Below are positions 24,028 to 40,849 of a stretch of DNA of 64,000 nucleotides, one piece after another (within the stretch, counting starts at the first letter, position 1; every line of letters begins with the position of its first letter). The notes under the pieces were generated by a model, which saw nothing but the letters and a program-made list of their open reading frames with translations, was not told the origin of the DNA and searched no databases. The DNA is from a virus (taxonomy: Duplodnaviria > Caudoviricetes): IMG/VR virus record IMGVR_UViG_3300032250_000391, positions 32,103 through 96,102 of that record. One strand, written 5' to 3'. The translations under genes and the position numbers were made by a program.

Positions 24028-24259
24028 GATACTGCTCCTAGTAAGTGATTAAATATGTAGTGATTTGCTACAACTTCATTGTAAGCACTCAGTTTAGGCG
24101 CGTGGATGGCACTACTTAGGCAGAGTAAAAGCGATAGATAAAGGCTTAGGCGTTTAAGAATTGCGGATTGATTCCATGGCCTGCGGATGACATTAGATAG
24201 CCTTGGCCGAGAGCCTGTGGCCTAAAAGGGAGAACCCTTTGGCCTGATACTGAAATAGC

Positions 24260-24409
24260 CTAGTTACTAATGCAGGCTCTAGTGATGATTGCCGTGCCTA
24301 GAATTACCATCATGAGCCAAAGCCAGCCTACGCCATTCTCTAGCAACTGTGAAACGCCAATGGTTAGAATAATGCCGCCTAGAACGGTTAAGGAATTGTT
24401 GTAGTTCAT
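24260..24409 (-). CDS. 49-aa membrane peptide
   Basis: MNYNNSLTVLGGIILTIGVSQLLENGVGWLWLMMVILGTAIITRACISN; AGGAG RBS. Confidence 0.55.
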   Translation of the reverse strand: MNYNNSLTVLGGIILTIGVSQLLENGVGWLWLMMVILGTAIITRACISN

Positions 24410-24501
24410 AGTATTACTCCTAAATAAACACCCAAGAAAATTGTTAAGTAAACGCCAATCATTAGTAAGGCGGCGCCATCGGTAAAATATCTGTTTCTCA
24501 T
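24406..24501 (-). CDS. 31-aa membrane peptide
   Basis: MRNRYFTDGAALLMIGVYLTIFLGVYLGVIL; AGGAGG RBS; ATGA overlap with the next gene. Confidence 0.55.
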   Translation of the reverse strand: MRNRYFTDGAALLMIGVYLTIFLGVYLGVIL

Positions 24502-24745
24502 TTTTCCTCCTAAGTCAGTAGTGACTTATCAATTAAAATAAAACTTTGGACATCACACGCTCATGAAATTTTCTTTCCCTACGTGTTCTGATTGCATGCT
24601 CAATAAGAGAGGCAATGCCAAGAAATCCGCATAAGCCTGTAATAAATACTAAAATTAAAATTAAGTTTTCCATCTTGTTTCTCCTTTTGTTTGTTTAACC
24701 ACAATTTCATTATATAGAGCGATGTCAGGCACGAGAACAGGCAGT

Positions 24746-24868
24746 TTAATTAAAAAGCAAGTAGCCTACGAAGTACAAAACAATCAAGGTAGGCAAAGAT
24801 ACGACGATAACGTTAATTAGGGTGAAAATGGCGGTAAATAAATTGCCAACTTTGTCAAAAATATTCAA
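24746..24868 (-). CDS. 40-aa membrane peptide (TTG start)
   Basis: MNIFDKVGNLFTAIFTLINVIVVSLPTLIVLYFVGYLLFN; AGGAG RBS. Confidence 0.45.
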   Translation of the reverse strand: MNIFDKVGNLFTAIFTLINVIVVSLPTLIVLYFVGYLLFN

Positions 24869-25128
24869 TACATACTCCTATAGTCGTTTAACTGATGCTT
24901 CATTATATCGACAAAATTCAGGGAATTATCTTGGCAAAAAACACTGCCAAATGCCTAGGCAACTTTTAAGGCATTTTCATTCTTACTTTCCTATAGGCAA
25001 CACCTTCAATTCCTAAGCCTGGCTTCATTCTTAAAAAACGCCTAATCTCTCACATAGGAGCTACCCATACAATTTTGTCACCACTCAGCCTAATATTTAT
25101 TTCATGGAAGCTAGCCGTACATCATTGA

Positions 25129-25296
25129 CTAGCCATACACGTCCATCTCCGTCTCCTCTTCCTCTTCAATTTCCTCAAGATAGTCAGGCTTATACTTGTC
25201 TTTGCGAATGTAAGTCTCCTTAAGCCGTAAGTCTTCCTCTACTCGCATACGGTATTTAGGCGTTCTTAAATCTTTGTGTATAAGTGACTGCTTCAT
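25129..25296 (-). CDS. ArfA-like small protein, probably leaderless
   Basis: MKQSLIHKDLRTPKYRMRVEEDLRLKETYIRKDKYKPDYLEEIEEEEETEMDVYG; TATACT 6 nt before ATG, no SD. Confidence 0.55.
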   Translation of the reverse strand: MKQSLIHKDLRTPKYRMRVEEDLRLKETYIRKDKYKPDYLEEIEEEEETEMDVYG

Positions 25297-25897
25297 GTGT
25301 TTAGTATAGAAAAGAAAGTTAGGGCAAGCTACAGGCGGAATAATGGCTAATGAATATATTGAGTTAATTGTTTTTAAACAAATAGAGGCTTCTGGGAGAG
25401 GAAACCTAAAACTGAAAGATAAGCCCCCCCAAACCCCCCATGCCTATAGACACGTTGACCGAAGGGTTCAAGGTATGCCATCTAGCGTTCTATTAGTATC
25501 AATCCAAAAGCCTAGGCTTCTGTACAAGTCAAACCAACAAAACTGAAAGACAAGCCCCCAGAAAGAAAGAGAAAACTCCCTAGGCATTACATTTGGCTCT
25601 AATCAGGGCTTACACGTTGCCTGTGGCTCAATGGTTTAATGCTTCGGAAACCAAATCATGTTATTAGTATAAATATGGACTTTAGGTAAGTCAATAGTGA
25701 CTTATCAATTACCTAAAAATAGTTCACAACTGGTGCCATGGCAATGGCCTGCGATTACTGTCGCAGCCTAAGCCTGGTGGCCTGGCATTGGAATCTGAAA
25801 CTGGCTGTAGGTGGCCTGTAGTGTGTAAGTGAAAATCTAATTAGCCTAACGATTGAAGAGAGGTTCACTCCTCACCCCCAATCACTTACATATCTGC

Positions 25898-26281
25898 CTA
25901 ACCTTCTTCCTCTGTCCACTCTTTATATCTTAAGGCATCTATCTTGTTCACCATCCACATCAGTTCTTCTCTGAGGCTTTCAAACCGTTCTTTATTTTCC
26001 ATGTCAATTATTGGTCTTTCATTACTGCCTGGAAACTTATAAAGCTCAATCATATCTAGGAGAATATTCTTTAAAGTAAACTTTGCGCCTACAATAACTT
26101 GTTTGTATTCCTCATTATCAAAATGGCTGATGGCTTCTAACACTTCGTCCTCAGCCCATAGGCTTGAAATTGTGTAGCTAAATATGTTTTTGCCATCTAC
26201 AAAGTCCCTTTCTATCAGAACTCCTTCATCCTCAATGTAACGATAGGTGCCATTTTTAATTGTCTTTTTTCCACTTGCCAT
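25898..26281 (-). CDS. Hypothetical protein
   Basis: ORF with RBS in the early region. Confidence 0.6.
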   Translation of the reverse strand: MASGKKTIKNGTYRYIEDEGVLIERDFVDGKNIFSYTISSLWAEDEVLEAISHFDNEEYKQVIVGAKFTLKNILLDMIELYKFPGSNERPIIDMENKERFESLREELMWMVNKIDALRYKEWTEEEG

Positions 26282-26331
26282 TTATTGCCCTCTTTAGCCT
26301 ACGGTTTATTTATTGCCGTTGTTCTTTACTT

Positions 26332-26526
26332 TTAGTTTAGCCTTACGCCTTTTATTAAACTCAGCTCGTCATTCCTGTACTCAAGACGGCTTTCAGGATA
26401 TTCCCATTCCGAGTCCAAATCATCAATGACGATATTCCTACCGTGATTATAGACTTCAACTACTTTGCCTTTGATGTTTTGGTCTATTACTTCGACGATA
26501 TCGCCTAAGCTGAAAATATTGCTCAT
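26332..26526 (-). CDS. Small SH3/KOW-like protein
   Basis: FSLGDIVEV...GKVVEV pattern; AAGGAG RBS. Confidence 0.55.
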   Translation of the reverse strand: MSNIFSLGDIVEVIDQNIKGKVVEVYNHGRNIVIDDLDSEWEYPESRLEYRNDELSLIKGVRLN

Positions 26527-26600
26527 GCCATCTCCTTAATTAGTTTTGTTTCGATAGTTTATTATCACAGTTAATTTCAGGCGAGAGAACCGGCACTTAA

Positions 26601-26927
26601 CTACTGCCTAGCTACCGTTTCAAAGGCTTTATTGATGTCTTTTAAATTATCGTAAGTCCAAGCATCAATAAAATCTACGCCTTCGGGCAGTTCATTATAG
26701 GAAAAGTCCTCATCCGAAACGCAAATGCGCTCACAGGCGACGCCTTCGACATAATTGTTATACTCGTCCATTGAGCGAAAGACGTTGTAATAGCCATGCT
26801 TGTCCAAATAGACAAAGGCTATGGAATCCTTGTCCTCTACTGCCCTAGCAATTAAGAATTGTCCTACGCCGCAGTCCTCGCAATAAAGCCACTCGACTTT
26901 ATCGTCAAAGTCCTTGTATGTGTTCAT
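26601..26927 (-). CDS. Hypothetical protein
   Basis: ATGA-coupled ORF. Confidence 0.6.
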   Translation of the reverse strand: MNTYKDFDDKVEWLYCEDCGVGQFLIARAVEDKDSIAFVYLDKHGYYNVFRSMDEYNNYVEGVACERICVSDEDFSYNELPEGVDFIDAWTYDNLKDINKAFETVARQ

Positions 26928-27250
26928 GCTATCTCCTTTGGAATATCAACTTCGTGTCCTAACTTATTTGCGACGTAGCACCGCATGGCGGCTATTAGTG
27001 GACTTGAGCCACAGAAAAAATCAGGCGTGTTTATGCTATTTCCAAAGGCAGCACACCATTCTTGACCTTTCCATATCTGCATGCCTTCATGCTCAATAAT
27101 TGGACCGCCTTGTGCCCAATCTTCTGTAGGCACATAGTAATCTCCGTTTTCTAAAATAATTACTTGGTCTATTTCTACATTTAGGCTTTGACACTTTGCC
27201 ACAGCCCAATCAAGCGCCATGCCTGTTAGTTCTGATGTTTCAATTTTCAT
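26924..27250 (-). CDS. NinX/DUF2591-family phage protein
   Basis: ELTGMALDWAVA, PTEDWAQGGPIIE, PLIAAMRCYV. Confidence 0.75.
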   Translation of the reverse strand: MKIETSELTGMALDWAVAKCQSLNVEIDQVIILENGDYYVPTEDWAQGGPIIEHEGMQIWKGQEWCAAFGNSINTPDFFCGSSPLIAAMRCYVANKLGHEVDIPKEIA

Positions 27251-27251
27251 T

Positions 27252-27581
27252 TTACTTCTCCTTTAGATAATCTTGCATTGCCTCAAAATAATTGTTCGCA
27301 TCTTGCTCTAGGCTAAAAGTTAGCTTGTAGTCCAAAGCCTCGTACTGCACTTCACCGCTTGGCATTTCCTCATACTGAATTGCGATGTCTTGGCTGCTTT
27401 CCCAATACGGTGTGGCATAAACCACTTCCATGAACTCCTCTTCTGGCATTGGTCTGCACCAAAAGATTGAGCCTGTGTGTTCTTCGCTATCAATAGTCCA
27501 ACCATGTAGCGATTTTCTTTGCCTTAGTAACTCTTTGAGTAGGCTATCTATGTATACTTCCAAGTCCTCTTGTGTGTTCAT
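27252..27581 (-). CDS. Hypothetical protein
   Basis: AAGGAG RBS; first gene after a GCC-box promoter. Confidence 0.6.
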   Translation of the reverse strand: MNTQEDLEVYIDSLLKELLRQRKSLHGWTIDSEEHTGSIFWCRPMPEEEFMEVVYATPYWESSQDIAIQYEEMPSGEVQYEALDYKLTFSLEQDANNYFEAMQDYLKEK

Positions 27582-28036
27582 TTTCTCTCCTTTACTTGAT
27601 GCTTTTATTATCTCAAACAGACTTAGGGCGGTACACAGGCACTTGCTAGTTGCCTGACTTGATTTAAAGCGTTTTAAGCGTTTATTTTTTTAGCGTATAC
27701 CGTCATATAGACTAACTTAGGTGGACGAGCTGTAGCGTTAGGTAGAGCGGTTCCTAGAGCATACTTATCGCTTGATGCATACGCAAAAAAGTGCTTGCCC
27801 TAAGTTGTATAATGCCTATGAAACGCAAACACAATTTAGGCTTCGCAAGTCATTGATTTTATTGGACAAATAAAAAGGTAGGCAAAAAAATGCCTGAATA
27901 GACTCGGAGATGGCTAATTCAGGCTTATTTCGGGATTAAGGACTATAGCGTTTTACTGCTATATCTCATTATATACAGGGTTTTATTTATATTGCTAGGC
28001 AATGTGAATTTACGCTCCTAGGCAATGTATAGACGG

Positions 28037-28062
28037 AAAAAAGGCGGGGTCACAAGTCCCGC
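28037..28062 (-). terminator. Rho-independent terminator
   Basis: GGCGGG-N9-CCCGCC-TTTTTT. Confidence 0.7.
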
Positions 28063-28163
28063 CCTACTGCTTTTCCAACGGTAATCACTCCGTTATTTAC
28101 TTACAAGGTGGCAATTATACGATACCGCCAAAACGTTTTATTATTGTATTCCAAAAAGTGTTT

Positions 28164-28343
28164 TTATTGCAAGCCACATGCCTCTAAAAATGTGCTTGTT
28201 TGGAATGCGTAGTTGTCCTGTCTAAGTGCATACGCCACCTGCAAGACTGCATTTTTGTAGGCTTCGAGTTGTTGCTCGTTTGTCGGTCTTGCCTGCTTAA
28301 CTTTTTCGGCTATTGCAATGTAGGTTTTTCTTGAAGCTGCCAT
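28164..28343 (-). CDS. Hypothetical protein
   Basis: Probable start MAASRK after AAGGAG. Confidence 0.55.
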   Translation of the reverse strand: MAASRKTYIAIAEKVKQARPTNEQQLEAYKNAVLQVAYALRQDNYAFQTSTFLEACGLQ

Positions 28344-28353
28344 AGTATTCTCC

Positions 28354-28647
28354 TTAGTAGTCGATTTCAGGAATGTTAAAACCTTTGGTCGCGGCATACG
28401 CTTGAAGCTCGCCTACGACACCGTTTAGATAGCGAGCCTTCGCTATTATTTCACCGCGAGGCAATTCGCCATCGCAACTCAGATTTTCAGGGCTAAGTTT
28501 GGAACTCAAAGAGTTTGCCAAGCGTTTGCAGTCCTTCTCGCTCAAGTCGTAGGGATTGTAAGTAGCGTCTTTGCCAAAGATAGCGTCCCAATCGTTTTGT
28601 TGTTCGCAGTATTGGATTAAATTTCTCATGGTTTTCTCCTTATGCAA
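28354..28647 (-). CDS. Hypothetical protein
   Basis: LSPENLSCDGE motif seen in phage early proteins. Confidence 0.6.
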   Translation of the reverse strand: MHKEKTMRNLIQYCEQQNDWDAIFGKDATYNPYDLSEKDCKRLANSLSSKLSPENLSCDGELPRGEIIAKARYLNGVVGELQAYAATKGFNIPEIDY

Positions 28648-28963
28648 TTACTGGCTTGAAGCCAAAGTTGTCGACGATGTAAAAGCCTTCGTTTTCGTCA
28701 TTTTTGTTTAGCCAAATTAAATCTCCGACCGAAGTAGAGCGATAATTTTTCCTACCGCCCATCACTTCGACGCCTTCGTTTTCTGACCAATGCTCGTCAA
28801 TGGAATTAGTCAAATCAAAGGCGTCAGCTAAAATTCTGTCCTTTAGCAAGTCACGATTATTAAGAAAGGCAACTGGCTCGTAATCGTTTAAGTCGACACG
28901 CGTTGGCGTCTTGCCAAGATAACCTTCAAATTTTTTCTTTTGCATAACTATGGCTGAGTACAT
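28640..28963 (-). CDS. YodL-like protein
   Basis: RSTSVGD...YIVDNFGF. Confidence 0.5.
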   Translation of the reverse strand: MYSAIVMQKKKFEGYLGKTPTRVDLNDYEPVAFLNNRDLLKDRILADAFDLTNSIDEHWSENEGVEVMGGRKNYRSTSVGDLIWLNKNDENEGFYIVDNFGFKPVIA

Positions 28964-29037
28964 TTCCTTCTCCTTTATTAGTGTTGCTCTGTCGATTTAG
29001 TTATTATGACGAAGTAAGTCAGGCGTGACTAATGGCA

Positions 29038-29289
29038 CTAAGTAAATAAAGCAAGTTGCCAATCAGAGTCTTCTTTGATAGGGTCAAAGACAATTTCGAA
29101 GTCTTCGTTTGGCGGTCCAATTTCCATTGTAAAAAAGTCCTGCGCCCAATTCTGAGGCGTATAGTCGCGGTAAGCCCATAGAAGCGTGTCATAGAAATAG
29201 CCTCTATCCTGCTCGCATGAATACATCACGGCATCTAGGACTAACTTTTTAGCCTCAGAAACGGTTATTTTGGTTTTAGGTCTACTCAT
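29038..29289 (-). CDS. Hypothetical protein
   Basis: Coupled ORF. Confidence 0.55.
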   Translation of the reverse strand: MSRPKTKITVSEAKKLVLDAVMYSCEQDRGYFYDTLLWAYRDYTPQNWAQDFFTMEIGPPNEDFEIVFDPIKEDSDWQLALFT

Positions 29290-29561
29290 GAGAGTGCCTC
29301 CTTTATTCTTTCTAAATTCACGCAGGAATAATTCATCGGATACTTTTCTTCAAATTTAGGGACGACGAGCATAGCCCATATATACGCCTGCTCCGTATCT
29401 GTCAGTTCCGAAGGCTCGTATACGTTAGTCATGTCCATTTTCATATTTAAGCCCGCCTCTGACGAGAGAATTGGCGCCGCCCAAAGATAGTCCTCATACG
29501 CGAAGTAGGCGTTACCGTCGTTATGATTGTAAAAAGCCTTAACAAAAGTTTTGTCAGTCAT
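29286..29561 (-). CDS. Hypothetical protein
   Basis: AGGAG RBS. Confidence 0.55.
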   Translation of the reverse strand: MTDKTFVKAFYNHNDGNAYFAYEDYLWAAPILSSEAGLNMKMDMTNVYEPSELTDTEQAYIWAMLVVPKFEEKYPMNYSCVNLERIKEALS

Positions 29562-29569
29562 GATTTCTC

Positions 29570-29839
29570 CTAAAATGAGTAAGGGGCGTAATTGCGAATT
29601 GGCGAGTCTTTGGAAAGCGATATATGCTCCTTAAACTCGTACTCAATTCCTCTGTCTTTGAGAGCGCCAATAAATAAAGAGGCGTCGCAGTCTTCCTCTA
29701 AGTAGACGTAATCGCCTCTGGCGTAAGAGTAGTAGGAAATCTTGTCATCAATTCCAAACTGCTCCAACATACGTTTCTCGACCTTGAGCCAACCATGTCC
29801 AGGGTCCGAATAAAAATCTAATTGCATTGTCATCTCCAC
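29570..29839 (-). CDS. Conserved phage/plasmid hypothetical protein
   Basis: SDPGHGWLKV...YLEEDCD motif. Confidence 0.6.
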   Translation of the reverse strand: MEMTMQLDFYSDPGHGWLKVEKRMLEQFGIDDKISYYSYARGDYVYLEEDCDASLFIGALKDRGIEYEFKEHISLSKDSPIRNYAPYSF

Positions 29840-29908
29840 TCTCCTTGTGATTATTTGCTACATTTATAATTGTAGATATCCGATACAGGCGTGTAAATCA
29901 CGAATGAC

Positions 29909-30187
29909 TTACTGCCTAAGAGATGCCAATTTCACAAATCTAGGGCGCATATAATAGTTTTGCGCCTCGATGCAATTGCGGATACTGGCGGCAAACTGAT
30001 GCCTTTTGCCATCGGCATTAGCCAGCTCCATCATTGTGACTGCAATAAAGATGGCAACAAGAGGCTTTTTGTTGTGCAGATGCTCAAGGACTGCGCCTCG
30101 ATTACCGTTAAGCCAACTCTCATAAAGTTCGGATATTTCCTCTTCCTCAATTTCAAACTCTGCAACTTTTTCTTTAGGCGATTTCAT
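29909..30187 (-). CDS. Hypothetical protein
   Basis: GGAGG RBS. Confidence 0.5.
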   Translation of the reverse strand: MKSPKEKVAEFEIEEEEISELYESWLNGNRGAVLEHLHNKKPLVAIFIAVTMMELANADGKRHQFAASIRNCIEAQNYYMRPRFVKLASLRQ

Positions 30188-30653
30188 GTAATTCCTCCAT
30201 CCATTCCGGTATGTTTCGATATTTCCAATGTGCGATATGTGCTTTGTGTAGCCTGTAATAAGTACGATAGGCTGTCACGGCGTCAGGATGCTTGCACTCG
30301 TCAGGCATCGCTTGTGCAAACGGTGTCATGCCAATGGGTATAGCTTTGGGTGGCGGACTCCAGATGCTTTCGATGACTGACTGACAGGCATGTCGCTTGT
30401 CGTAGCGGTAGGAATATTCTGCACACAGTTCCAAGCCCAACTCGACTAGCCACTGGTAATTTTCCTTGCTTTGCCTAGCCCAAACTGTGCAGGGATGATT
30501 TGGATAGGCTGGCTTGTATTGAGAATAACCGCCAAGCAGATGATGGGCTGTGGACAGCATTTGTGCAGTTTCCAACGGCATTTTGACTATATGCTTGTCC
30601 AAGTGAAGCCTTGCGGCCTCAATCGGTTCGTAATCTAGGACAAAAATGTTCAT
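30174..30653 (-). CDS. Pyrimidine-dimer DNA glycosylase (DenV-like family)
   Basis: MNIFVLD...DKHIVKMPLETAQMLST, NHPCTVW, AQAMPD. Confidence 0.75.
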   Translation of the reverse strand: MNIFVLDYEPIEAARLHLDKHIVKMPLETAQMLSTAHHLLGGYSQYKPAYPNHPCTVWARQSKENYQWLVELGLELCAEYSYRYDKRHACQSVIESIWSPPPKAIPIGMTPFAQAMPDECKHPDAVTAYRTYYRLHKAHIAHWKYRNIPEWMEELHEIA

Positions 30654-30901
30654 TGAAATTCGACTCCAACAAAGAAGCCCATCATGATTAAGGCGGCAGA
30701 TACTTTTCTTGGTAATTCGTATACGCCATCGTAATCTCGTAGGGTGACTTGCGTTTCGTCAATCACACTTGTTTCATCCTCAAACCACAAGCCACCGCCT
30801 GTGCCAGTTTTTTGATGCTCAAAGAATCCATAATTAGCCTGTGAGTCAACTTGCACGTCCCAATCGCCAACTGTTAGTTTTTTGTCAAAGTTATATGCCA
30901 T
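30650..30901 (-). CDS. Hypothetical protein
   Basis: GGLWF...DYDGVYELP motif; RBS. Confidence 0.6.
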   Translation of the reverse strand: MAYNFDKKLTVGDWDVQVDSQANYGFFEHQKTGTGGGLWFEDETSVIDETQVTLRDYDGVYELPRKVSAALIMMGFFVGVEFQ

Positions 30902-30977
30902 TTTGTTTCTCCTTGTAATTGATTAACCACAATTACATTTTAAAGATTAGATTCAGGCGCGTCGGGTGGCAGTTTCG

Positions 30978-31217
30978 CTAAATCGTAGGAATCACAGATA
31001 GGTCATCGTCGCTTGTAAAGAGAGCGCCTGCGTTATTACCTTCATCGTCTTGGGACGAAAAAATATGCGAGCCATCGCTAAAGAAAATGACCAAAGACCT
31101 TTGATACCAGCCTAAGTTGTCCATTTCGTCGCTTGTTAAATAGCGAACTGAGGCAACTGTTTTGCCGACTAGAAACGCAGAGGCAGACGCCTCCCAAGAT
31201 TTAATTAATTTGTCCAA
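30978..31217 (-). CDS. Hypothetical protein
   Basis: SQDDEGNNAGALF motif; AAGGAG RBS. Confidence 0.6.
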   Translation of the reverse strand: MDKLIKSWEASASAFLVGKTVASVRYLTSDEMDNLGWYQRSLVIFFSDGSHIFSSQDDEGNNAGALFTSDDDLSVIPTI

Positions 31218-31375
31218 AATTTACTCCTTTATATACATACGAACTGTGTCGCCAAAACCTAGCAACTTAAGGGCAAAAGCATCTGCTTCTGCCTGTGAGT
31301 CAAACTCTTCCTCACGCCACTTGCGAAGCTCTGTCCATGAATTTTTGGAATACTCAACTACATAATAAACTTTGG

Positions 31376-31600
31376 TCATCTCATTGCTCCTTTATGTGAA
31401 CTGTTTAAGCCTAGCAATAAGCTAGGGTCTGTTACTAAAATATAATTGCTTTTGGGCATCGGCACGACACAATGCTTTATTTTCCTAGCATTACTTTCGC
31501 CACAATCCATGCAGACCTTGTAGCCTAGCAAGCCTCGTCTGCCATCTACCGCCTCACCGCATTGCCTACAGTCAAACGACTCACTCATAACTCCTCCCAT
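31376..31600 (-). CDS. Small zinc-finger protein
   Basis: CxxC...CxxC. Confidence 0.6.
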   Translation of the reverse strand: MGGVMSESFDCRQCGEAVDGRRGLLGYKVCMDCGESNARKIKHCVVPMPKSNYILVTDPSLLLGLNSSHKGAMR

Positions 31601-31788
31601 CTAGCCATCATTTCGCCTAAATCTACTACTGGCGCGTCATCGCTGACGTTGTACCAGAGGCAATAGGGGTCGTTGTTTTGCTTTAAATTTGCTTGGCTAA
31701 CATTCTGCTGCCAATCAATTTTTTCTTGCTCTGCCTGCCATACCGCTTTTACTCTACCCATAACTGACTCCTCCTCTTTCGTAGCCAA
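31585..31788 (-). CDS. Hypothetical protein
   Basis: Coupled ORF. Confidence 0.45.
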   Translation of the reverse strand: MATKEEESVMGRVKAVWQAEQEKIDWQQNVSQANLKQNNDPYCLWYNVSDDAPVVDLGEMMARWEEL

Positions 31789-31990
31789 CTACATTAAAAT
31801 CGCCATGATTGCCAATGATTGAAAGATTAGGGTTGTCATCAAAGTAATAGAAAATGGCATCGTCATCCTCGCCTTCAACCCCGTTCCACTCGCCAATAGC
31901 CGCCCTAGCGGTATAAATGTAGTCGTCCACAGGCTCGCCATTTGCTTCATTTGCCCACTTAAAGTGAATAACAATATGTTCAATAGCCAT
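31754..31990 (-). CDS. Hypothetical acidic protein
   Basis: AAGGAG RBS. Confidence 0.55.
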   Translation of the reverse strand: MAIEHIVIHFKWANEANGEPVDDYIYTARAAIGEWNGVEGEDDDAIFYYFDDNPNLSIIGNHGDFNVVGYERGGVSYG

Positions 31991-31999
31991 AACTTCTCC

Positions 32000-32263
32000 T
32001 TAACTATGAAAACCAAAATGGTCATCGTGCCAAACAGCTCCAATGCTGTAACGGCAATCGCCGTCATCGGTATCAAAGAAGGCTGCATTTATCTCGCAAT
32101 GCTTGGCGTCAATCCAAATCTTGACGATTGGATAGCTAAAATTCCAAGTGCTTAAATAACCTAGAGCGCGATAAACTTCTTTGTCATTTTTGCCTACGTT
32201 AATCATCAAGTTTGTCATGTCGACTGCGTTAAACTGATAATCCACTCGCCTTGCGTCTGTCAT
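32000..32263 (-). CDS. Hypothetical protein
   Basis: GAGGAG RBS; first gene after a GCC-box promoter. Confidence 0.6.
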   Translation of the reverse strand: MTDARRVDYQFNAVDMTNLMINVGKNDKEVYRALGYLSTWNFSYPIVKIWIDAKHCEINAAFFDTDDGDCRYSIGAVWHDDHFGFHS

Positions 32264-32600
32264 GTGATTTCTCCTCTAGTTGCTTTGTTGATGTATTCAT
32301 TATGAACAGATATTTAAGGCACTAAAAGTGGCATATTGCTATATATATCAGGCACTTGCAGACGTATTAGCCTAAAATATAAAAGATAAATGTCTTAGCC
32401 AATGTTTAAACGACTTCTAAACTTAAGCCTCATATTTCCCGCGTAGGTGTGACGTTTTACTATTAATCTGACAGTCTGATATTCGCTTGAAATTTAAACG
32501 TCACACCTATCGTTTACACGATTAGGCAATCGACAAAATCGACACACGCCTTGGCAATATTGCAGATACAAAAAAGCCGACGTTAGTCAGCTTTTCTTTT

Positions 32601-32987
32601 CTACCACCAAGAGTCGTAGACGACCGCCTTACCATCTGCGATAGCTTGGCGAGCTTTCGCAATAAAGCCTAAGTCGGCTTCCACCGATTCTTCATCAGGC
32701 GGAAAGTTACCGAAAAAGAATCCTGTTGTTTCGGGCAACGCCTTACCTTGAACCGCTCGCTCCAATTCATCAAGGTCATTATCCGTAAGCCTCAAGGTAT
32801 CGCAGTTAAAGGTCGATGAAAGACCGCCTTTGTGTGCGTAAAGTTGATGCATCCAACCATGCAAGTCGTGATGCTTACGCCAATAAAACAGTTCTTCTCT
32901 TGGCTCGCTCTCTGGAATTTCTAAATCCACTTGCTGATTGCCTACTGCTTCGGCATTTACTAAATAAGCATACATATCTAATCCCAT
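32601..32987 (-). CDS. Conserved phage hypothetical protein
   Basis: MGLDMY...YWRKHHDLHGWM...TGFFFG...YDSWW. Confidence 0.7.
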   Translation of the reverse strand: MGLDMYAYLVNAEAVGNQQVDLEIPESEPREELFYWRKHHDLHGWMHQLYAHKGGLSSTFNCDTLRLTDNDLDELERAVQGKALPETTGFFFGNFPPDEESVEADLGFIAKARQAIADGKAVVYDSWW

Positions 32988-33052
32988 ACTCTTCTCCTTA
33001 GTGTGTTGTGTTTCGACAATGAAATGATATTAAATAAGGGTAGGCGTGTAAA

Positions 33053-33496
33053 TCACTGGTGACTTACTGCCTTCTCAATGCCAATTTGTTTATTTTCTTG
33101 AGCCAAACCCCATTCAAGTTCGTTATGTACTTTACGCTCGACAGACAAAAGCCAATCAAGGTCATCGCCGTCCTGCCAAACTTCTACATCATCAAACTCT
33201 TCGCCTATTCGAACAAACTCGGCATTAAGTCCCGCCTCTGATGCCGTCATGTAAAACTTTTCTAGGTGAACAATTTCAGGATAGTTGAGGGTGTACCATT
33301 TGATGCCTTCGGCATTAAAGGAAAAGTATTTGATATTGCCATCCTCGCTTACGATAACTTTAGTCTTAGGAATGATATAACTTAGGTCTAAACCCTCATC
33401 ATCAATCACGTCTTTGGCAAAGTAGTTGTCAAAGTGCCTTTGAAACCTTGACGGTTCGCCATAAACCACTATTGATACCTCGCTCCTATATCCCAT
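33053..33496 (-). CDS. Hypothetical protein
   Basis: MGYRSEV...KWY...FVRIGEEFDD motif. Confidence 0.65.
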   Translation of the reverse strand: MGYRSEVSIVVYGEPSRFQRHFDNYFAKDVIDDEGLDLSYIIPKTKVIVSEDGNIKYFSFNAEGIKWYTLNYPEIVHLEKFYMTASEAGLNAEFVRIGEEFDDVEVWQDGDDLDWLLSVERKVHNELEWGLAQENKQIGIEKAVSHQ

Positions 33497-33725
33497 ACTC
33501 GCTCTCCTCTTCTAGTTCTGAATAACTGGAAAATGCGCTGGAAACAGGGTCGCTGCCATCATGCTCTGCCATTTGCTTAAAAATGTCCGCCACAAAGCCA
33601 TCTTCGTCTGCTTTGATTTGAATGACGCCTGGCCTGCCTTCCTTGACAATATAAAGGTATTGGTCGTCATAAGCTTGGACAACCCAACCTTCGCCTACGT
33701 ACTGCATTTCTTTAGATTCAATCAT
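33486..33725 (-). CDS. Hypothetical protein
   Basis: Coupled ORF. Confidence 0.55.
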   Translation of the reverse strand: MIESKEMQYVGEGWVVQAYDDQYLYIVKEGRPGVIQIKADEDGFVADIFKQMAEHDGSDPVSSAFSSYSELEEESEYGI

Positions 33726-34069
33726 GCCGATTGCCTCACTTTCTCTGAAATTAAATTAAGCGACTCATGCACTAAATCAACGGCATCTTGACTATGACCG
33801 CCAATATGCCAATTACGAATATCCCAAACAGCCATACCGTCTCTGCCACAATAGTTGCGTCCATCTTTCCAGTTATAGATTGTTGCCACAGTGCCGTCAT
33901 CGCCTACAATGACCCATTCCGCATCGACCTTATAACCGTCGCCATCAGTCGGTTCGCCAAATGCCTCTAACAATTCGACATAATTGGCATTAATGTAACC
34001 TTGAAGCGACGTGCCGTTGACTGACGCCCAATGACCTTTAATGTTCTGTACAGCCTGAAACCATTTCAT
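33722..34069 (-). CDS. Hypothetical protein
   Basis: GTSLQG...FGEP...ATIYNWK...WHIGG motif. Confidence 0.65.
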   Translation of the reverse strand: MKWFQAVQNIKGHWASVNGTSLQGYINANYVELLEAFGEPTDGDGYKVDAEWVIVGDDGTVATIYNWKDGRNYCGRDGMAVWDIRNWHIGGHSQDAVDLVHESLNLISEKVRQSA

Positions 34070-34106
34070 TTTAAACTCCTTAGTTAGTAGTGACTTACTA
34101 AAATCA

Positions 34107-34649
34107 TTATGAAGATTGAAGATAGGCGCGTAAAGTGGCGGAATTAGAATTTAAAGCGGCAATGGCCGCCCTCTCTTCGCACTCTTTAATGATTGCCTCC
34201 ATCAGACTGATATAGTCTTGGGCATCTTCTACGCCGCCTAACTCTTCTGCTTGTTGGATTGTATTTATAACTTCCTCATAGATGACTGACGCGCTATAGG
34301 AAAGGTGAATGAGTTTGCCTGCCGTGTCAATTTCATCGTCGACAGACAGACTGATAAAAATGCCATCATCGTCAAATGGCACTTCTGTAATAAAGTAGCC
34401 AAGACGATTGACGAAGTGCCAGCCTGCCTGAATGAAAACTTTGTCATCCTCTTCGCCATACGTCCAGATTGTATTTGGCGCTTGAGCCTTAACGAAGTCT
34501 AATTCTTCGCCGTAGGTTTCAAACATGATGCCATCGAATGATGCGTTATCATCCAAATGGTTTTTTATTGGTTTATATTTTTCCTCCCACATTTCGATGC
34601 TGAGGGCTTGTTTTGGCGTTTCTAACATACTTTTCTCCTTAGAATTCAC
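34107..34649 (-). CDS. Hypothetical protein
   Basis: FETYGEEL...GWHFVNRLGYFIT motif. Confidence 0.6.
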   Translation of the reverse strand: MNSKEKSMLETPKQALSIEMWEEKYKPIKNHLDDNASFDGIMFETYGEELDFVKAQAPNTIWTYGEEDDKVFIQAGWHFVNRLGYFITEVPFDDDGIFISLSVDDEIDTAGKLIHLSYSASVIYEEVINTIQQAEELGGVEDAQDYISLMEAIIKECEERAAIAALNSNSATLRAYLQSS

Positions 34650-35025
34650 TTGGCAACAACATTACGTTGTCGATTAAATAAAACTTCCACTCGCCTTCGG
34701 GACAGTCAGTAAACTCAATGCGCTTGCCTGCCAGAATACCGTCGTTGCCATCCGTCAGTTCAAGCACAGCCTCAGAGTCTTGCACGTTTAAAAAGACGGA
34801 CATAAATCGGTTTTCTGCCTGTAACTTATTAAACTCTGTAGCCATAATGTCTAAGAACCAATAAGCGCCATTGCCTGCGTTCTCAGCAAAATACTTAACG
34901 CCATCCGTATAATGAAATTTCCTATTAAAGAAGTGGCGATACCATTTTTCCGAACCTGTGAACTGCGAAAGTGAGCCTTTTAATTCTACTGCGTCTATCA
35001 TAATAGTTTCTCCTCTATAAGTCAT
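34639..35025 (-). CDS. DUF6876-like protein
   Basis: LSQFTGSE.WYRH...YTDGV...AYW.LD...FTDCP...LLPSE. Confidence 0.6.
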   Translation of the reverse strand: MTYRGETIMIDAVELKGSLSQFTGSEKWYRHFFNRKFHYTDGVKYFAENAGNGAYWFLDIMATEFNKLQAENRFMSVFLNVQDSEAVLELTDGNDGILAGKRIEFTDCPEGEWKFYLIDNVMLLPSEF

Positions 35026-35368
35026 TAGTGATTTACAATTATAATAATATATCCAGAAATTAGGCGCGTCTTAGGCAACATTTTGGCTGTTTTAGCTTAA
35101 AAAGTGACTTAAAGCGCACATTTTTGCACCCCAGTCGCAAGCCTGTTGTTTTAACGCTCTACAAGCTCACCACTAAACTTAGCTATACCGTCATATAGCT
35201 TTAATCAAATAAACGTCACACCTACGCGGGAAAATCACTTCCTACTGATTATCTTTAGGCTTATTTAATCATTTGGCTCTATAGTTTGTATGTAATAAAG
35301 TCCAATATATTAAAGACAAGCAATTTTGCCTGTTATAAATAACAAACTAACTCCTAAAGGAAATTATC

Positions 35369-35440
35369 ATGTGGACATCTCCATCAGCTACTGAAATGCG
35401 TTTTGGCTTTGAAGTTACAATGTACGTAATGAACAAGTAA
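35369..35440 (+). CDS. pqqA: PQQ precursor peptide PqqA (prophage-borne, missing from the ORF track)
   Basis: MWTSPSATEMRFGFEVTMYVMNK with the ExxxY motif (EVTMY); AAAGGA RBS; terminator follows. Confidence 0.93.
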   Translation: MWTSPSATEMRFGFEVTMYVMNK

Positions 35441-35463
35441 TTCCTTGGAATTGCTTTGAGTAA

Positions 35464-35494
35464 ACAAAAGGGGCTTACGCCCCTTTGTCTTTTG
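35464..35494. terminator. Bidirectional terminator between pqqA and 35497..36273
   Basis: AAAGGGGC-TTAC-GCCCCTTT. Confidence 0.75.
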
Positions 35495-35496
35495 CA

Positions 35497-36273
35497 CTAG
35501 ATGCCCAACTGCGAACGAGCCTTAGCTAACATCACGCTATCAGGATTCATAATCATGCGACCCTTCTCCTTGACGGTAATCTTGTAGAATGGAAACAGCA
35601 TGAACACTTGATTAGCCTGTGAACGTGCGGTACCCAAACTGTACGGTTTAGCCAACAAGTCTTGTTGCAAGTTACCTTTGTCGCCTGATGTCAGTTCATT
35701 TTCTGTCACCAACACGGTGAAGGCACGACGCATAATCTCGTTTAGCTTGCCACCCTTGCTATACCAGTCCAACAACTGAGCAGCCTTCTCACCGACTTTC
35801 TTAGCCAACTTAGTGTCGATGTCTGAAAGAATTTGTTCCTGACGAGCCTTAAGCGTATCGGCATCAAGTGTTGCGTCGGACATTTCCAATATCAAGAAGT
35901 CGCTAACTTTGTCGCCTAACTTATGCTTGATACGCTCAGATTTCTTGGAGAAGAAGATACGTTCCTTTTTCTCTTTAACTTCTTTTGGTTCTTTTGCTAC
36001 TTTTGGTGCTTTTGCTTTTTTAGCTGGCTTTTCTACGACTGCTACTTCCACCGTATCTGAGCCTGCTGGTTGCTCTGCGTAAGCGGCAATCATGGCTTCG
36101 TCTTTTACTGCACCAGCCACTGCCATTTCAATGTCTGCTTCGGATATTGACGGAATGTCCTCGATGACCGTTTCGTCAATTACATCGTCATCCAACTTAG
36201 CTAACAATTCATCCAATAAACCGCTATCTACAAAGTCCGCTTCTACTTTTTTAACAATCTGTGCTTTTGCCAT
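35497..36273 (-). CDS. Putative DNA-binding protein with C-terminal winged helix
   Basis: Acidic/Lys-rich N-terminus; KPYSLGTARSQANQ helix motif. Confidence 0.65.
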   Translation of the reverse strand: MAKAQIVKKVEADFVDSGLLDELLAKLDDDVIDETVIEDIPSISEADIEMAVAGAVKDEAMIAAYAEQPAGSDTVEVAVVEKPAKKAKAPKVAKEPKEVKEKKERIFFSKKSERIKHKLGDKVSDFLILEMSDATLDADTLKARQEQILSDIDTKLAKKVGEKAAQLLDWYSKGGKLNEIMRRAFTVLVTENELTSGDKGNLQQDLLAKPYSLGTARSQANQVFMLFPFYKITVKEKGRMIMNPDSVMLAKARSQLGI

Positions 36274-36635
36274 ATTTAAATCTCCTTAGTCTATAAGTGT
36301 GTCGTTTCGCGACAATTAAAGTTTACGTCCAGTTATAAGGCGAGTAAATCATTAGTGACTAACTGCCTTAAACTCTATGACTTCGCTCTTTTATCTCTCC
36401 GTCATGTTTCACATTATGATTGCCCGATACAGGCGTGTGAACAGGCAGTTATTAGTGACTTAGGAGCAAAAACCAGCACTACATATATATGAAGCGCGTG
36501 TGCGCGAATACCGTATAGATTTAGGCATGTCTACAGGCAGTTTTGTTTGGACTTTGGCAGTAAAATGCCTTGGAATACGAGCCTATACAAAAATGGCGCT
36601 CCATTTAAAAAGCGCCAATCTTGTATATGGAAATG

Positions 36636-36694
36636 TACCCATACATCTATACAGGAAGCTACCCATACATCTATACAGGAAGCTACCCATACAT
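36636..36694 (+). repeat. 24-bp tandem repeat x2.5
   Basis: TACCCATACATCTATACAGGAAGC at 36636 and 36660, partial at 36684. Confidence 0.85.
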
Positions 36695-36695
36695 T

Positions 36696-37157
36696 CTACC
36701 AACTCCCCGCTATAAAACTTGTAGCCTCAGAAGAGCGAGGAATGTCGGGGTCTGGCGGTGGAGGTGGCGCTAGATTATTGGCGACTTCGTAAAACTTTTC
36801 CTGCCCTGATATATCTTTTTTCATATCGCAATAGGTGTAGTTAATCAAAAAATCTTGGTAACACTTTGTCGCCTCTTCTACATTCTTGCATTTTTTTGAG
36901 CTAAAAGGGTCATTAACCCAGCGTCCATCTACATTTGTTTTAACAGTAAGTTCGTATGGCGTCCAATAATCAGGAGTTGCGTTAGGGTCAATTCTGCCAT
37001 GCCATAAGACGCTTACCCAATATTCGCCATTGGAATATTCAAGAACTCTACAGTAGTCTTTGTCGTTAAAAAGCCTTTGATGACTTGCTATGCTTAAAAA
37101 CTTGCCATTTTTATCTATAAATGGCGTTGCTGATTTAGCCATTAGTTTCCTCTTCAT
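36696..37157 (-). CDS. Hypothetical protein
   Basis: ORF ending in AGSW. Confidence 0.55.
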   Translation of the reverse strand: MKRKLMAKSATPFIDKNGKFLSIASHQRLFNDKDYCRVLEYSNGEYWVSVLWHGRIDPNATPDYWTPYELTVKTNVDGRWVNDPFSSKKCKNVEEATKCYQDFLINYTYCDMKKDISGQEKFYEVANNLAPPPPPDPDIPRSSEATSFIAGSW

Positions 37158-37455
37158 CTATCTTCTTTATCAGCTCTCTGGCTTCTTTTAGGGTTAATCT
37201 TACAACTTTGGTAGAAGAAGGAAGCTCTCTATCGAGTCCGCTGGCGTAACCGGCAACGCCTATTATTGGCAAAACTGTGTACGTTCTTAGTAGCACCCAA
37301 ATTCCGCCAATAAACGCTCTAAATGTTGGATAAATCATGCAGATGAATAATGCCTTTGGCAGCCACACAATTGGCATACAAATGCCAATCCATAATGATT
37401 GCAAATAGCTTTTATTTTTAACAGGAATAATTTGCCACACTTCTGGAAACCACAT
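37135..37455 (-). CDS. Membrane protein
   Basis: Hydrophobic segments. Confidence 0.5.
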   Translation of the reverse strand: MWFPEVWQIIPVKNKSYLQSLWIGICMPIVWLPKALFICMIYPTFRAFIGGIWVLLRTYTVLPIIGVAGYASGLDRELPSSTKVVRLTLKEARELIKKIDEEETNG

Positions 37456-37532
37456 TGTTGCCTCTCTACCGTTCGGTAATAAATATATAAATAAACCGCC
37501 TAACTACGCCTAAAAAATACCGCTCGGTAAGC

Positions 37533-38099
37533 CTAAGCGGCTTTCTTCTCTTCTATAACTTTGTCTAAATGGCTTTGAAAAAAACCCATACGATGTGCCT
37601 CTTTGAAGGCTGCCATCATTACTTGCACATCGTACAATGCTCCATGCGCCTGCTCCATGTCATATTGAATTCCTAGCGCAAAGCAAAGCTCTTTAAGGCT
37701 AGAGTTTTTACCAAGCGGAGTTGCCCATCGACTGTTTTTCATGGTGCAAAAAGAATTAATCTTTGGAAACAAAGCCGATTGCTCTAGTTCGTGCTTAATA
37801 AAGGGAATATCAAAGTCCGCGTTGTGTGCTATTACAAGGTCTGACACTTCCAATACCTTTGCAATCGTTGGTGCAAATTCTGCAAATAATGGCTTGCTTG
37901 CAAGTTCTTCATACGTAATGCCGTGAATCTCTTGCGCCTTAGCCGAAATTGCTCTTTCTGGATTAAAGCGCCAAACACGCTCCGCCTTGAGCTTCATGCT
38001 TGGAAATTCCAACATGACAATAGCCAACTCAATAATCTTATGTCCGTCCGAAAATTCAAGTCCAGTCGTTTCAACGTCTAGCCCTGTAATAATCGCCAT
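37533..38099 (-). CDS. DEDDh 3'-5' exonuclease (DnaQ-like)
   Basis: LDVETTG, AHNADFD, HGALYD. Confidence 0.9.
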   Translation of the reverse strand: MAIITGLDVETTGLEFSDGHKIIELAIVMLEFPSMKLKAERVWRFNPERAISAKAQEIHGITYEELASKPLFAEFAPTIAKVLEVSDLVIAHNADFDIPFIKHELEQSALFPKINSFCTMKNSRWATPLGKNSSLKELCFALGIQYDMEQAHGALYDVQVMMAAFKEAHRMGFFQSHLDKVIEEKKAA

Positions 38100-38259
38100 T
38101 TACTTTTTCTCCACAAAAAAAGGACATTGACCATTAAGTTTTTTAATTGGAGGCGCAATAAACCACGTTACTATGCCGCTCACAGGCGCATTTGGGTCTG
38201 CAAATCGCTCACATACAGTATGTGGGCCACAGGCAAATTGACACTTGCTATTTGAAAAA

Positions 38260-38460
38260 TTATCGTTCATTTATATATGCCATTTCTATGTAATCAATAA
38301 TCTGCTTATCTACCAATCCAGCCAGACAGTCATACATCGTGCCTAACGCTATGCTGAATTCCTTATCTGTTAATTCGCCACGACCATGACGACCAAGCTG
38401 CCTCTCAAGCGTCTCAATAGCCTTGCGGTTGATTTCCTCATACAGGGTAGGTACTGACAT
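38260..38460 (-). CDS. Hypothetical protein
   Basis: GAGGA RBS; GCC-box promoter upstream. Confidence 0.55.
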   Translation of the reverse strand: MSVPTLYEEINRKAIETLERQLGRHGRGELTDKEFSIALGTMYDCLAGLVDKQIIDYIEMAYINER

Positions 38461-38546
38461 TTATATTCCTCTCTATAAATATGCATAACTTAAATCTTAT
38501 ACAGCTATTTCAGGCAAGTAAATCATGAATGACTTATCGCCTCACA

Positions 38547-39173
38547 TCAATGAAACCGCATGCCTTTATCTTTTAGATTTTCAATGTTTTCATAGTCCCT
38601 GATTAAAACTTTGTTTACCACGAACTTTAACGCCTCTACTCGCTCTTCAATTTTCGTCGTGCGTCTAGGCAAATAAAAATGCGAAGATGAATTATATTCA
38701 CCTACAAGCAATCCAAGCATAATTGTGTTTAAGTGCTCCATATACGCCGGATTTGCTGGTGCTTTTCCTTTCGCGTCGACAATTTCAATGGCTGGCTGTA
38801 TCAGCGTAAGGCACATAAACCTTTTGTTACTTTCCTCAAAACAGCGGTGAAAGTATTTAGTAAATTCCTTGCTCTGCTCTAGGGTTACATTTTCTCTTTG
38901 TATATCTGCAATCGTATAAGCCAACATATCTATCGGCGTTCTATCGGTAACAAATGTGCCCGCACACTGACTGTATTTGGCAACTGCATCATCTAGGATT
39001 GCATTTTGAATAATCATTCTTGTAGTAAAATCATAGTCAACTTTTGGGCTATAGCCTAAACGCTCAAAAACTGCCGAACTTGCCGTCTCTACGTATGGCA
39101 CTTGAGTTTCTTCAGCATAAGCTTTGGCTAATGTGGTTTTGCCAGTTCTATGGGCGCCAACTAGCCCTATCAT
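38547..39173 (-). CDS. P-loop nucleotide kinase-like protein (AAA_28 type)
   Basis: GAHRTGKTT, TDRTPIDMLAY. Confidence 0.7.
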   Translation of the reverse strand: MIGLVGAHRTGKTTLAKAYAEETQVPYVETASSAVFERLGYSPKVDYDFTTRMIIQNAILDDAVAKYSQCAGTFVTDRTPIDMLAYTIADIQRENVTLEQSKEFTKYFHRCFEESNKRFMCLTLIQPAIEIVDAKGKAPANPAYMEHLNTIMLGLLVGEYNSSSHFYLPRRTTKIEERVEALKFVVNKVLIRDYENIENLKDKGMRFH

Positions 39174-39586
39174 TGCTTGTCGGCTCTTTCCTGCGCAGCC
39201 TTATCCGAATAACCGTTCTGGTAACGCACTCCTAATTTTGCAATATTGGCTGACAAAGTTTCTTCGCGAGTGATGCCAAAGCCTTGACGTAAACCTTCCA
39301 TGTAAAATTCTATGTCACCTAATTCTTCAATCACATTTTCGCGGTCAATTGGCTTGTTATAAATAACGTGCTTTTTAATGGCATCAAGCAACTCGCCCGC
39401 TTCTCCCGCTACGCCAACCGCCATGTGCAAAGCGTGAGCTTTTTCAGGCACAAGAGTTTTGATAATTTCTTCGCCAGACTTTGCTAACGCCTTCACCATT
39501 TCATCGTGCTTAATTTCCATTTTTACTCCTTTTCTGTTTGTATTCCAGTAATGCAAAACCTTATGCGCTCTTATCATTTTGTTCAT
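39170..39586 (-). CDS. MazG-like nucleotide pyrophosphohydrolase
   Basis: GEAGELLDAIKK...EELGD...NIAKL..RY; real start probably MEIKHD. Confidence 0.85.
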   Translation of the reverse strand: MNKMIRAHKVLHYWNTNRKGVKMEIKHDEMVKALAKSGEEIIKTLVPEKAHALHMAVGVAGEAGELLDAIKKHVIYNKPIDRENVIEELGDIEFYMEGLRQGFGITREETLSANIAKLGVRYQNGYSDKAAQERADKQ

Positions 39587-40407
39587 TTAAATGACTGCTC
39601 AATTAGTTTCCTATATTGAGTCCATTGTTTGAAGTTTCCAAACAGTTCAGGGTCAGAGCCTGGCACTGCCTGATGTTCGAAGGGGCTTGCATGAATTGGT
39701 CTTGAACCAACCAATCTATCGCAAAGCTGGATTTCATCTTCAATCGTTGCCTTAGAGCCGTCATGCTTTAGGTAACTCACACGGCAACAACGTGCAGGCG
39801 AAATCTTCAATAAGTTTTCTAAGGAGTTATTGGCACGCTCTTCATCTGTCACGTAAGGCAGATGCCAGTCATTTTTGTCAGAAGAGTCCGAACCTCTTAA
39901 AACAGGCTCAGATTTGCTCATGGCATTTAGCATTTGCAAGGCTAACTCGTGAATTTCAGGCTGTGCATCCGAGTGCGCTCTAAGTTCTGTAAAGTTATCA
40001 AATTCTGTGGCAGTCATTACGACGTGAATATGTTGAAACGGCTCAAGAATACGATTGGCTACTTGCTTATGAAGCCCTAATGCGTTCATCGCCTCTGCCA
40101 CGTCAGCAGCCTTATTTGCCGCATCCAGCCATAGACTTTTAGCAGTTTCTAACTCTTCGCCAGTAAACTCTTCAGAAGCCTGCATGCCAGCTTGATTTTT
40201 ACCCCAATGAATAGGCGCCGCAGGCTCATTACGAACCATCTCTAGCATCTTCTTAACAGGAATAGCTCGCGAGGAACTAGCGTTACGACTAAAAAGCCTA
40301 TGAGTCATCATTTCGCTATGAATAAATCTTGGATAGACTAAATGTAATGTGGTAATTCTATTGCCACTCCGATTAATCGAGTCGGCTATAATTTTCGCTT
40401 GAATCAT
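39583..40407 (-). CDS. thyX: FAD-dependent thymidylate synthase
   Basis: THRLFSRNASSSRAIP, LRAHSDAQPEI, HASPFEH. Confidence 0.85.
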   Translation of the reverse strand: MIQAKIIADSINRSGNRITTLHLVYPRFIHSEMMTHRLFSRNASSSRAIPVKKMLEMVRNEPAAPIHWGKNQAGMQASEEFTGEELETAKSLWLDAANKAADVAEAMNALGLHKQVANRILEPFQHIHVVMTATEFDNFTELRAHSDAQPEIHELALQMLNAMSKSEPVLRGSDSSDKNDWHLPYVTDEERANNSLENLLKISPARCCRVSYLKHDGSKATIEDEIQLCDRLVGSRPIHASPFEHQAVPGSDPELFGNFKQWTQYRKLIEQSFK

Positions 40408-40482
40408 GTATGCCTTGATAGTATAAGTTATTAGTGACTTATTATTATATACCGTAAATCATTTAAATTGCTCGGCAATCTT

Positions 40483-40559
40483 TGGTATCCCAAGAGGGAG
40501 TCGAACCCCCAACCTACGGAGTAGAAATCCGTTGCTCTATCCAATTGAGCTATTGGGAC
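40483..40559 (-). tRNA. tRNA-Arg(UCU), phage-encoded, CCA included
   Basis: GTCCCAA acceptor, ACGGA-TTTCTAC-TCCGT anticodon arm, GGTTCGACTCC T-arm. Confidence 0.92.
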
Positions 40560-40561
40560 AT

Positions 40562-40656
40562 GTAACTTACAACAGACCGCCCTACTTAGACTAAGGAGGA
40601 GATAAGCATGATAGAACGGTCTGAGGTTTCGGCTAATAAAGCCTCGTCAGAGTTAC
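40562..40656 (-). ncRNA. Type I hammerhead ribozyme
   Basis: GUAACU-CUGACGA-GGCU(UUAUU)AGCC-GAAA-C...stem III...GUA^AGUUAC; all core nucleotides present; predicted cut between 40568 and 40567. Confidence 0.82.
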
Positions 40657-40849
40657 TGAGTTAGCGTTGTGCGCTTTGTCGATGTCTTATTATATCTAGC
40701 GTTAGCAGGGAAAAGTCAGTAAACGACAACTTGCCTTAACAAATACCTAAGAAAAATCTGTAAAATGAAAGACACACTCCAGCAATAATAAACGCGCAAG
40801 TTACCGCCTCTAGAGTGTGTTTAATTTTTAACCACTTCGACATTCGCAT

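Follow-up and report, generated by a model that had tools for sequence, protein, structure and literature searches.

What does a self-cleaving ribozyme do when the next gene downstream is a tRNA? The purpose of bacterial and phage hammerheads has been a question since thousands were catalogued in 2011, and a link between hammerhead and tRNA gives an output that can be assayed, namely the 5' end of the tRNA, how much tRNA is made and how far it depends on RNase P. Perreault et al. 2011 (PMC3088659) proposed that phage hammerheads break long transcripts down to gene-length pieces. We analyzed a 64,000-nucleotide stretch (hereafter the window) of the Caudoviricetes record IMGVR_UViG_3300032250_000391, in which a promoter, a hammerhead and a tRNA-Arg(UCU) had been predicted to form one transcription unit. 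The source is a 96-kb uncultured virus with an estimated completeness of 97%, and the window is its 3' two-thirds. Our preferred reading, which we consider reasonably probable, is that the locus carries a genuine and probably active type I hammerhead in the leader of the tRNA, drawn from a widespread phage family whose members are sited just upstream of genes.

A type I hammerhead in the leader of tRNA-Arg(UCU)

The hammerhead and the tRNA lie on the minus strand, after the genes nrdA, nrdB and a 37-codon ORF (orf37) and before thyX (Table 1). The product of orf37 is hydrophobic and membrane-spanning in appearance, possibly that of a small translationally coupled gene. A second phage tRNA, tRNA-Cys(GCA), is found at 63790-63863 (minus), at a distance of 137 nt from where the contig ends, and the sequence available upstream of it showed no hammerhead.

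Table 1 Features of the hammerhead-tRNA locus and its surroundings, in window coordinates.
Feature	Position	Strand	Remarks
nrdA	44199-41935	minus	
nrdB	41881-40850	minus	
37-codon ORF (orf37)	40849-40736	minus	ATG overlaps nrdB stop (TAAATG)
Non-coding stretch, 330 nt	between 37-codon ORF and thyX	minus	home of hammerhead and tRNA-Arg
Promoter-like CCCT-N12-TATAAT	40710-40689	minus	perfect TATAAT -10 hexamer at 40694-40689
Stem I, 5' strand GUAACU	40656-40651	minus	preceded by family-conserved A40657
Catalytic core CUGACGA (C3-A9)	40650-40644	minus	fits CUGANGA consensus
Stem II hairpin GGCU-UUAUU-AGCC	40643-40631	minus	closing pair G10.1-C11.1
Core GAA (G12 A13 A14)	40630-40628	minus	A15.1 = 40627
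Stem III, 59 nt	40627-40569	minus	A15.1-U16.1, C15.2-G16.2, then 2x2 internal loop (CU/UU); MFE fold
Stem III distal helix, 13 bp	40623-40611 with 40585-40573	minus	MFE fold
Stem III loop, 25 nt	40610-40586	minus	contains CCUCCUUA
GUA cleavage triplet	40570-40568	minus	A17 = 40568
Predicted scissile bond GUA|A	between 40568 and 40567	minus	from hammerhead geometry
Stem I, 3' strand AGUUAC	40567-40562	minus	
Leader AGUUACAU, 8 nt	40567-40560	minus	between predicted cut and tRNA; position -1 = U
tRNA-Arg(UCU), encoded CCA	40559-40483	minus	ARAGORN; Rfam RF00005, 69.4 bits
thyX	40407-39583	minus	MazG-like gene and AAA ATPase downstream

The type I hammerhead is complete and occupies 40656-40562 of the minus strand. 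All 13 conserved core positions were intact (C3 U4 G5 A6 N7 G8 A9, G12 A13 A14 and an H17 other than G), as were all three core-adjacent Watson-Crick pairs (G40643-C40631, U40651-A40567 and A40627-U40569). By the criteria that Perreault et al. 2011 set for accepting a hammerhead (PMC3088659) it qualifies, with a full core and core-adjacent mispairs absent. The unconstrained minimum free energy (MFE) structure of a 106-nt stretch took the hammerhead shape (-30.2 kcal/mol, z -2.6), with stems II and III closed at the junction and stem I open, as in type I. In a longer sequence context, a weak competing hairpin (UCAG...CUGA) took up the core. Each element of the ribozyme was found where it had been predicted, in a shape that folding recovers unaided, and on this modeling we regard the motif as real. 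The predicted cut likewise held up: an alternative GUC|U register at 40575/40574, the choice of our covariance model R1 (see below), reached only -10.9 kcal/mol under constrained folding versus -30.2 kcal/mol for GUA|A.

The stem III loop (40586-40610, minus) contains CCUCCUUA, which is identical to the anti-Shine-Dalgarno end of 16S rRNA. On the plus strand, the same region reads AAGGAGG-N8-ATG, the start of an 18-codon ORF from 40608.

ARAGORN and Rfam agreed on the tRNA-Arg(UCU), and the leader AGUUACAU accounts for the 8 nt that had been proposed between the predicted cut and tRNA position +1. The 3' strand of stem I lies wholly inside this leader and the tRNA starts at 40559, so that the cut does not fall at +1. 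Bacterial RNase P prefers a U at position -1. Among arginine codons in the long ORFs of the phage, AGA is used most (30%), and an efficient supply of tRNA-Arg(UCU) therefore plausibly matters.

Family membership and chance level

A 20-base signature comprising the core, stem II and GAAAC (CTGANGAGGCT-N5-AGCCGAAAC) had matches in at least 120 viral contigs, and 122 of the 128 signature matches listed were complete hammerheads. By its sequence, the window hammerhead belongs to this very large phage type I family, which has the stem II GGCU-UxAxU-AGCC. Seventy-two family members made up alignment A1 and covariance model R1. Stem I covaried strongly in A1: double-change cells numbered 202, compared to 49 in shuffles, and the paired fraction of cells was 99.9%. 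The window shared with A1 a number of residues that the search pattern had left unfixed, namely an invariant A and a G just before stem I, C-A after stem I, a G-C outer pair and the U-x-A-x-U of loop II. It also had the subfamily traits of the A1 consensus: a 6-bp stem I, GAAAC, and G-U before H17.

R1 scored the window hammerhead at 45 bits (E 7.6e-9) and aligned it in a different register. The score is partly circular, since the core and stem II pattern used to collect the members came from the window itself. It was the sole match of R1 in the window and in the whole 96-kb phage, and 527 kb of unrelated phage control loci (~1 Mb of strands) gave no match. Stem III is continuous in family members, whereas in the window it is broken by the 2x2 internal loop after the second pair; GUA sites and long stem III inserts are also present in some family members. 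Members of the subfamily typically lie 10-35 nt upstream of a ribosome-binding site (RBS) and ATG, and a second subfamily (stem II GCYGG-UGARAUU-CCRGC) almost always has the same placement relative to an RBS and start codon. The window hammerhead departs from this position in being followed after 8 nt by a tRNA instead of an RBS-led ORF, and none of the 128 subfamily hammerheads among the matches listed had a tRNA within 260 nt.

Among the Rfam hammerhead models, the best match to the feature was a partial one to RF00008 (17 bits, E 0.69), below the gathering score, and these models also miss canonical phage hammerheads. At the gathering score, Rfam 15 made no hammerhead calls in 11 loci with canonical phage type I hammerheads; L107, L085 and L096 are among those overlooked. 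The absence of an Rfam hit at our locus consequently carries little weight, and the same misses mean that standard pipelines in effect leave this large family without annotation. Phage PaP3, cited for a variant hammerhead by Perreault et al. (PMC3088659), yielded no hammerhead by the descriptor used here or by Rfam. HDV-family models had no match in 40400-40800 at E <= 10.

We searched for homologs of the locus by gene and by pattern. In 80 loci of ThyX relatives (<=64% identity), the region upstream of thyX had no hammerhead and hardly ever a tRNA, and NrdB was at most 42% identical to that of any cultured phage. Phages Mithridates and Astolliot, which have a similar tRNA-Arg, had no hammerhead upstream of it. 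A pattern of a hammerhead followed by a UAGCUCA D-arm had no matches in viral contigs, five in metagenome contigs (all chance, without a tRNA) and four in genome contigs (none homologous). The hammerhead-tRNA-Arg locus is a singleton across the viral, metagenome and genome collections searched, and because no homologous locus was found there is no covariation evidence for the window copy itself.

These results bear on two readings in which the locus would hold no working ribozyme. A chance resemblance in an AT-rich intergenic region would be consistent with the loose descriptors, which found 0.2 matches per shuffled window, and with a score below Rfam gathering. Against it, the strict descriptor (stem I >=6, stem II >=4, stem III >=2 and the full core) found 0.025 matches per dinucleotide-shuffled window on both strands, a figure that leaves out the 13-bp distal helix and the family-specific loop and flank residues; together with the R1 score, the empty control strands and Rfam's failure on canonical members, this makes chance very improbable. 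We also think it improbable, though conceivable, that the hammerhead is a decayed or inactive relic, for example from a recombination that brought in the tRNA, in which cleavage is blocked by the break in stem III or by the lack of a tertiary contact. The internal loop lies two pairs from the core, the competing hairpin appears in longer context, the copy is a singleton without conservation, and inactive hammerhead-like RNAs were listed by Perreault et al. (PMC3088659). However, decay should have cost it some of the 13 core positions, three core-adjacent pairs and family loop and flank residues, all of which are intact; the 13-bp distal helix would hold stem III together; and both the GUA site and the long stem III insert have precedents in family members.

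Hammerheads beside tRNAs in other phages

Scans anchored on the hammerhead core and the T-loop found further contigs with a hammerhead ahead of a tRNA. The predicted cut coincided exactly with tRNA +1 in about a dozen of them, mostly at tRNA-Tyr (L203, L208, L210, L211, L214, L216, L231, L243, L256 and L257). In L223 the tRNA is tRNA-His and the predicted cut keeps G-1, and in L229 it is tRNA-Gly with a 1-nt offset. In the exact fusions, the 3' strand of stem I is the 5' strand of the acceptor stem, and the 5' strand of stem I covaries with it across contigs, with pairs that include CCUGU/GCAGG, CCUAC/GUAGG, CUGGC/GCCAG, CUACC/GGUAG and CUGCC/GGCAG. Judging by these sequences, such fusions would make a tRNA 5' end, bearing a 5'-OH, without RNase P.

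Two other contigs are the nearest analogues of the 8-nt leader design in the window. In both, stem III is long and the cleavage site is GUA, and the predicted cut lies 6 nt before tRNA-Leu in L269 and 18 nt before tRNA-Pro in L289. A search of cultured phages with the L269 query matched the tRNA-Leu only, and Stenotrophomonas phage Moby, which has the tRNA-Tyr in common with the fusions, has no hammerhead. In five contigs (L220, L245, L251, L265 and L297) a hammerhead with the stem I GGCACA/UGUGUC precedes ~100 nt of conserved sequence that is not a tRNA and closes with a T-loop-like GGUUCGA. In L262 and L291, a structured-looking stretch of ~95 nt separates the cut of a long-stem-III hammerhead from tRNA-Pro; neither ARAGORN nor Rfam called a tRNA in it.

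The window and the exact fusions thus share a type I hammerhead directly 5' of a phage tRNA, with a tRNA or its precursor as the downstream product. They differ in that the fusions would be cut at +1 (at G-1 for tRNA-His) without RNase P, whereas the window copy would leave 8 nt. Hammerheads before phage tRNAs are apparently a wider and undescribed habit, of which the window, because its leader would remain, represents a milder form. It is also the weaker case in having no relatives for a conservation test. In freely accessible full-text literature, including Perreault et al. 2011, the theta-ribozyme paper, a 2019 ribozyme review and papers on cyPhyRNA-seq and permutation, we found no natural hammerhead described on the 5' side of a tRNA.

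Transcription, processing and relation to known systems

The original prediction placed a promoter for the unit at CCCT-N12-TATAAT, and this part stood only in part. The string is present and falls within a class of sites, SCCT-N12-BANAAT, that is enriched in the phage (15 sites versus 3.65 +/- 1.75 in shuffles, with 0 of 100 shuffles reaching 15). The minus strand (24078-40710) has 12 of these sites, all 12 outside long ORFs and most 25-50 nt before an RBS and ATG. These distributions suggest that SCCT-N12-BANAAT is likely a phage-specific promoter class without a -35 element. Ten of the other 11 sites on the minus strand have a YGCC box ~10 nt further upstream, which the site at 40710 lacks. 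A sigma-70 promoter was rejected, as a consensus scan came back empty and no -35 was present at 16-18 nt (the best, CTGACT, is 19 nt from the -10). A promoter of its own for the hammerhead-tRNA unit is plausible from the sequence, and we take it to be roughly an even call. A separate transcription unit that yields a ~115-nt 5' RNA, also part of the prediction, is likewise something that we infer. A candidate terminator after nrdB was rejected as well: its hairpin carries a large loop, did not reach significance (z -1.4) and lies inside the 37-codon ORF. As it is unconvincing as a terminator, read-through from nrdA-nrdB-orf37 may also supply the unit.

Two copies of ATATAATAA, at 40442-40450 and 40687-40695 (minus), flank the hammerhead-tRNA unit, the former 35 nt before thyX. 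The count of 3 versus 1.1 expected is not significant alone. The pair may represent two -10 elements, or the insertion of the 245-bp unit may have duplicated the sequence.

Under our preferred reading, transcription would begin at the CCCT-N12-TATAAT site ~30 nt upstream, arrive by read-through from nrdA-nrdB-orf37, or both, and the ribozyme would fold and cut co-transcriptionally at GUA|A (40568/40567). Cleavage during transcription is possible since the ribozyme is complete before the tRNA is transcribed. A 2',3'-cyclic phosphate would terminate the upstream product, on which type I geometry would retain almost the entire ribozyme, including stem II and the 13-bp stem III. The downstream product would be a pre-tRNA with a 5'-OH and a leader, AGUUACAU, in which AU follows the 6-nt strand of stem I. 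Melting of the 6-bp stem I would leave this leader single-stranded, and host RNase P could then remove it. The cut would in this way uncouple the tRNA from upstream RNA and provide a short, defined and unstructured leader, the tRNA counterpart of the role proposed for phage hammerheads before protein genes. Freeing the tRNA precursor from upstream RNA with a short leader is, we infer, the most likely role. RNase P would still be required here, and this would consequently be a leader-trimming variant and not a replacement for RNase P.

One caveat to the preferred reading is that RNase P alone could mature tRNA-Arg, with the ribozyme dispensable for the 5' end. The adjacency itself could be incidental, as the lack of a tRNA within 260 nt of any of the 128 subfamily members among the matches listed would suggest. 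A fuller version of that thought, which we hold to be unlikely but worth keeping in view, is an active hammerhead that serves the upstream RNA by giving a structured, cyclic-phosphate 3' end to the nrdA-nrdB-orf37 message or to the ~115-nt RNA, the tRNA being merely the next gene. Its product might be a stable small RNA with a stem III loop that mimics the anti-Shine-Dalgarno sequence. This would fit the retention of nearly the whole type I ribozyme on the 5' product, the CCUCCUUA in the stem III loop, the same 0/128 count and the general processing of long phage transcripts proposed by Perreault et al. (PMC3088659). On the other hand, the 8-nt spacing and the U at -1 argue against a random placement, as does the finding that unrelated phages repeatedly have hammerheads at or just before tRNA 5' ends, and the anti-Shine-Dalgarno match was spotted post hoc in a region whose plus strand reads as an RBS and ATG with an 18-codon ORF. 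We conclude from these sequence comparisons that the adjacency of hammerhead and tRNA is real and probably meaningful. A more speculative and doubtful extension joins both functions in a bifunctional unit under one phage promoter: ribozyme-driven 5' maturation of tRNA-Arg, through a leader already shortened by the ribozyme, along with a stable ~115-nt cyclic-phosphate RNA whose exposed anti-Shine-Dalgarno loop could act on ribosome-binding sites, with sister systems that replace RNase P.

Taken with the fusions at +1, the window suggests that phages mature their own tRNAs with ribozymes on both sides, hammerheads at the 5' side and HDV-like theta ribozymes at the 3' side, and that such maturation may in some cases bypass host RNase P. 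This has a bearing on how phages take over translation, and the hammerheads are natural parts for tRNA or guide RNA release. The arrangement has an artificial parallel: Fechter et al. 1998 reportedly engineered cis-hammerhead-tRNA transcripts for in vitro tRNA production. In these too a hammerhead stands 5' of a tRNA and self-cleavage releases the tRNA, but the constructs are synthetic and designed for a cut exactly at +1, whereas the window copy is natural and would leave a leader.

With the phage and prophage type I hammerheads described previously (PMC3088659; Rfam clan CL00010), the window shares the core, a three-helix junction whose open arm is stem I, and its location between genes of a phage operon; the role proposed for them, the division of long phage transcripts, would be common to both. 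It differs from them in having a tRNA downstream and not an RBS-led ORF, GUA in place of the usual GUC, and an unusually long stem III (59 nt) interrupted by a 2x2 internal loop. Theta ribozymes are HDV-like and sit at the 3' trailers of phage tRNAs, and the paper that describes them does not mention hammerheads (Kienbeck et al. 2024, PMC10879173); the original prediction was correct that they trim these trailers in phages. Both they and the window hammerhead are small self-cleaving ribozymes with a cut beside a phage tRNA, which implies ribozyme-assisted maturation. The window differs in having a hammerhead and not an HDV-like nested double pseudoknot that cuts at its own 5' end, a predicted cut in the 5' leader and not the 3' trailer, and an environmental phage as its setting, with no suppressor tRNA.
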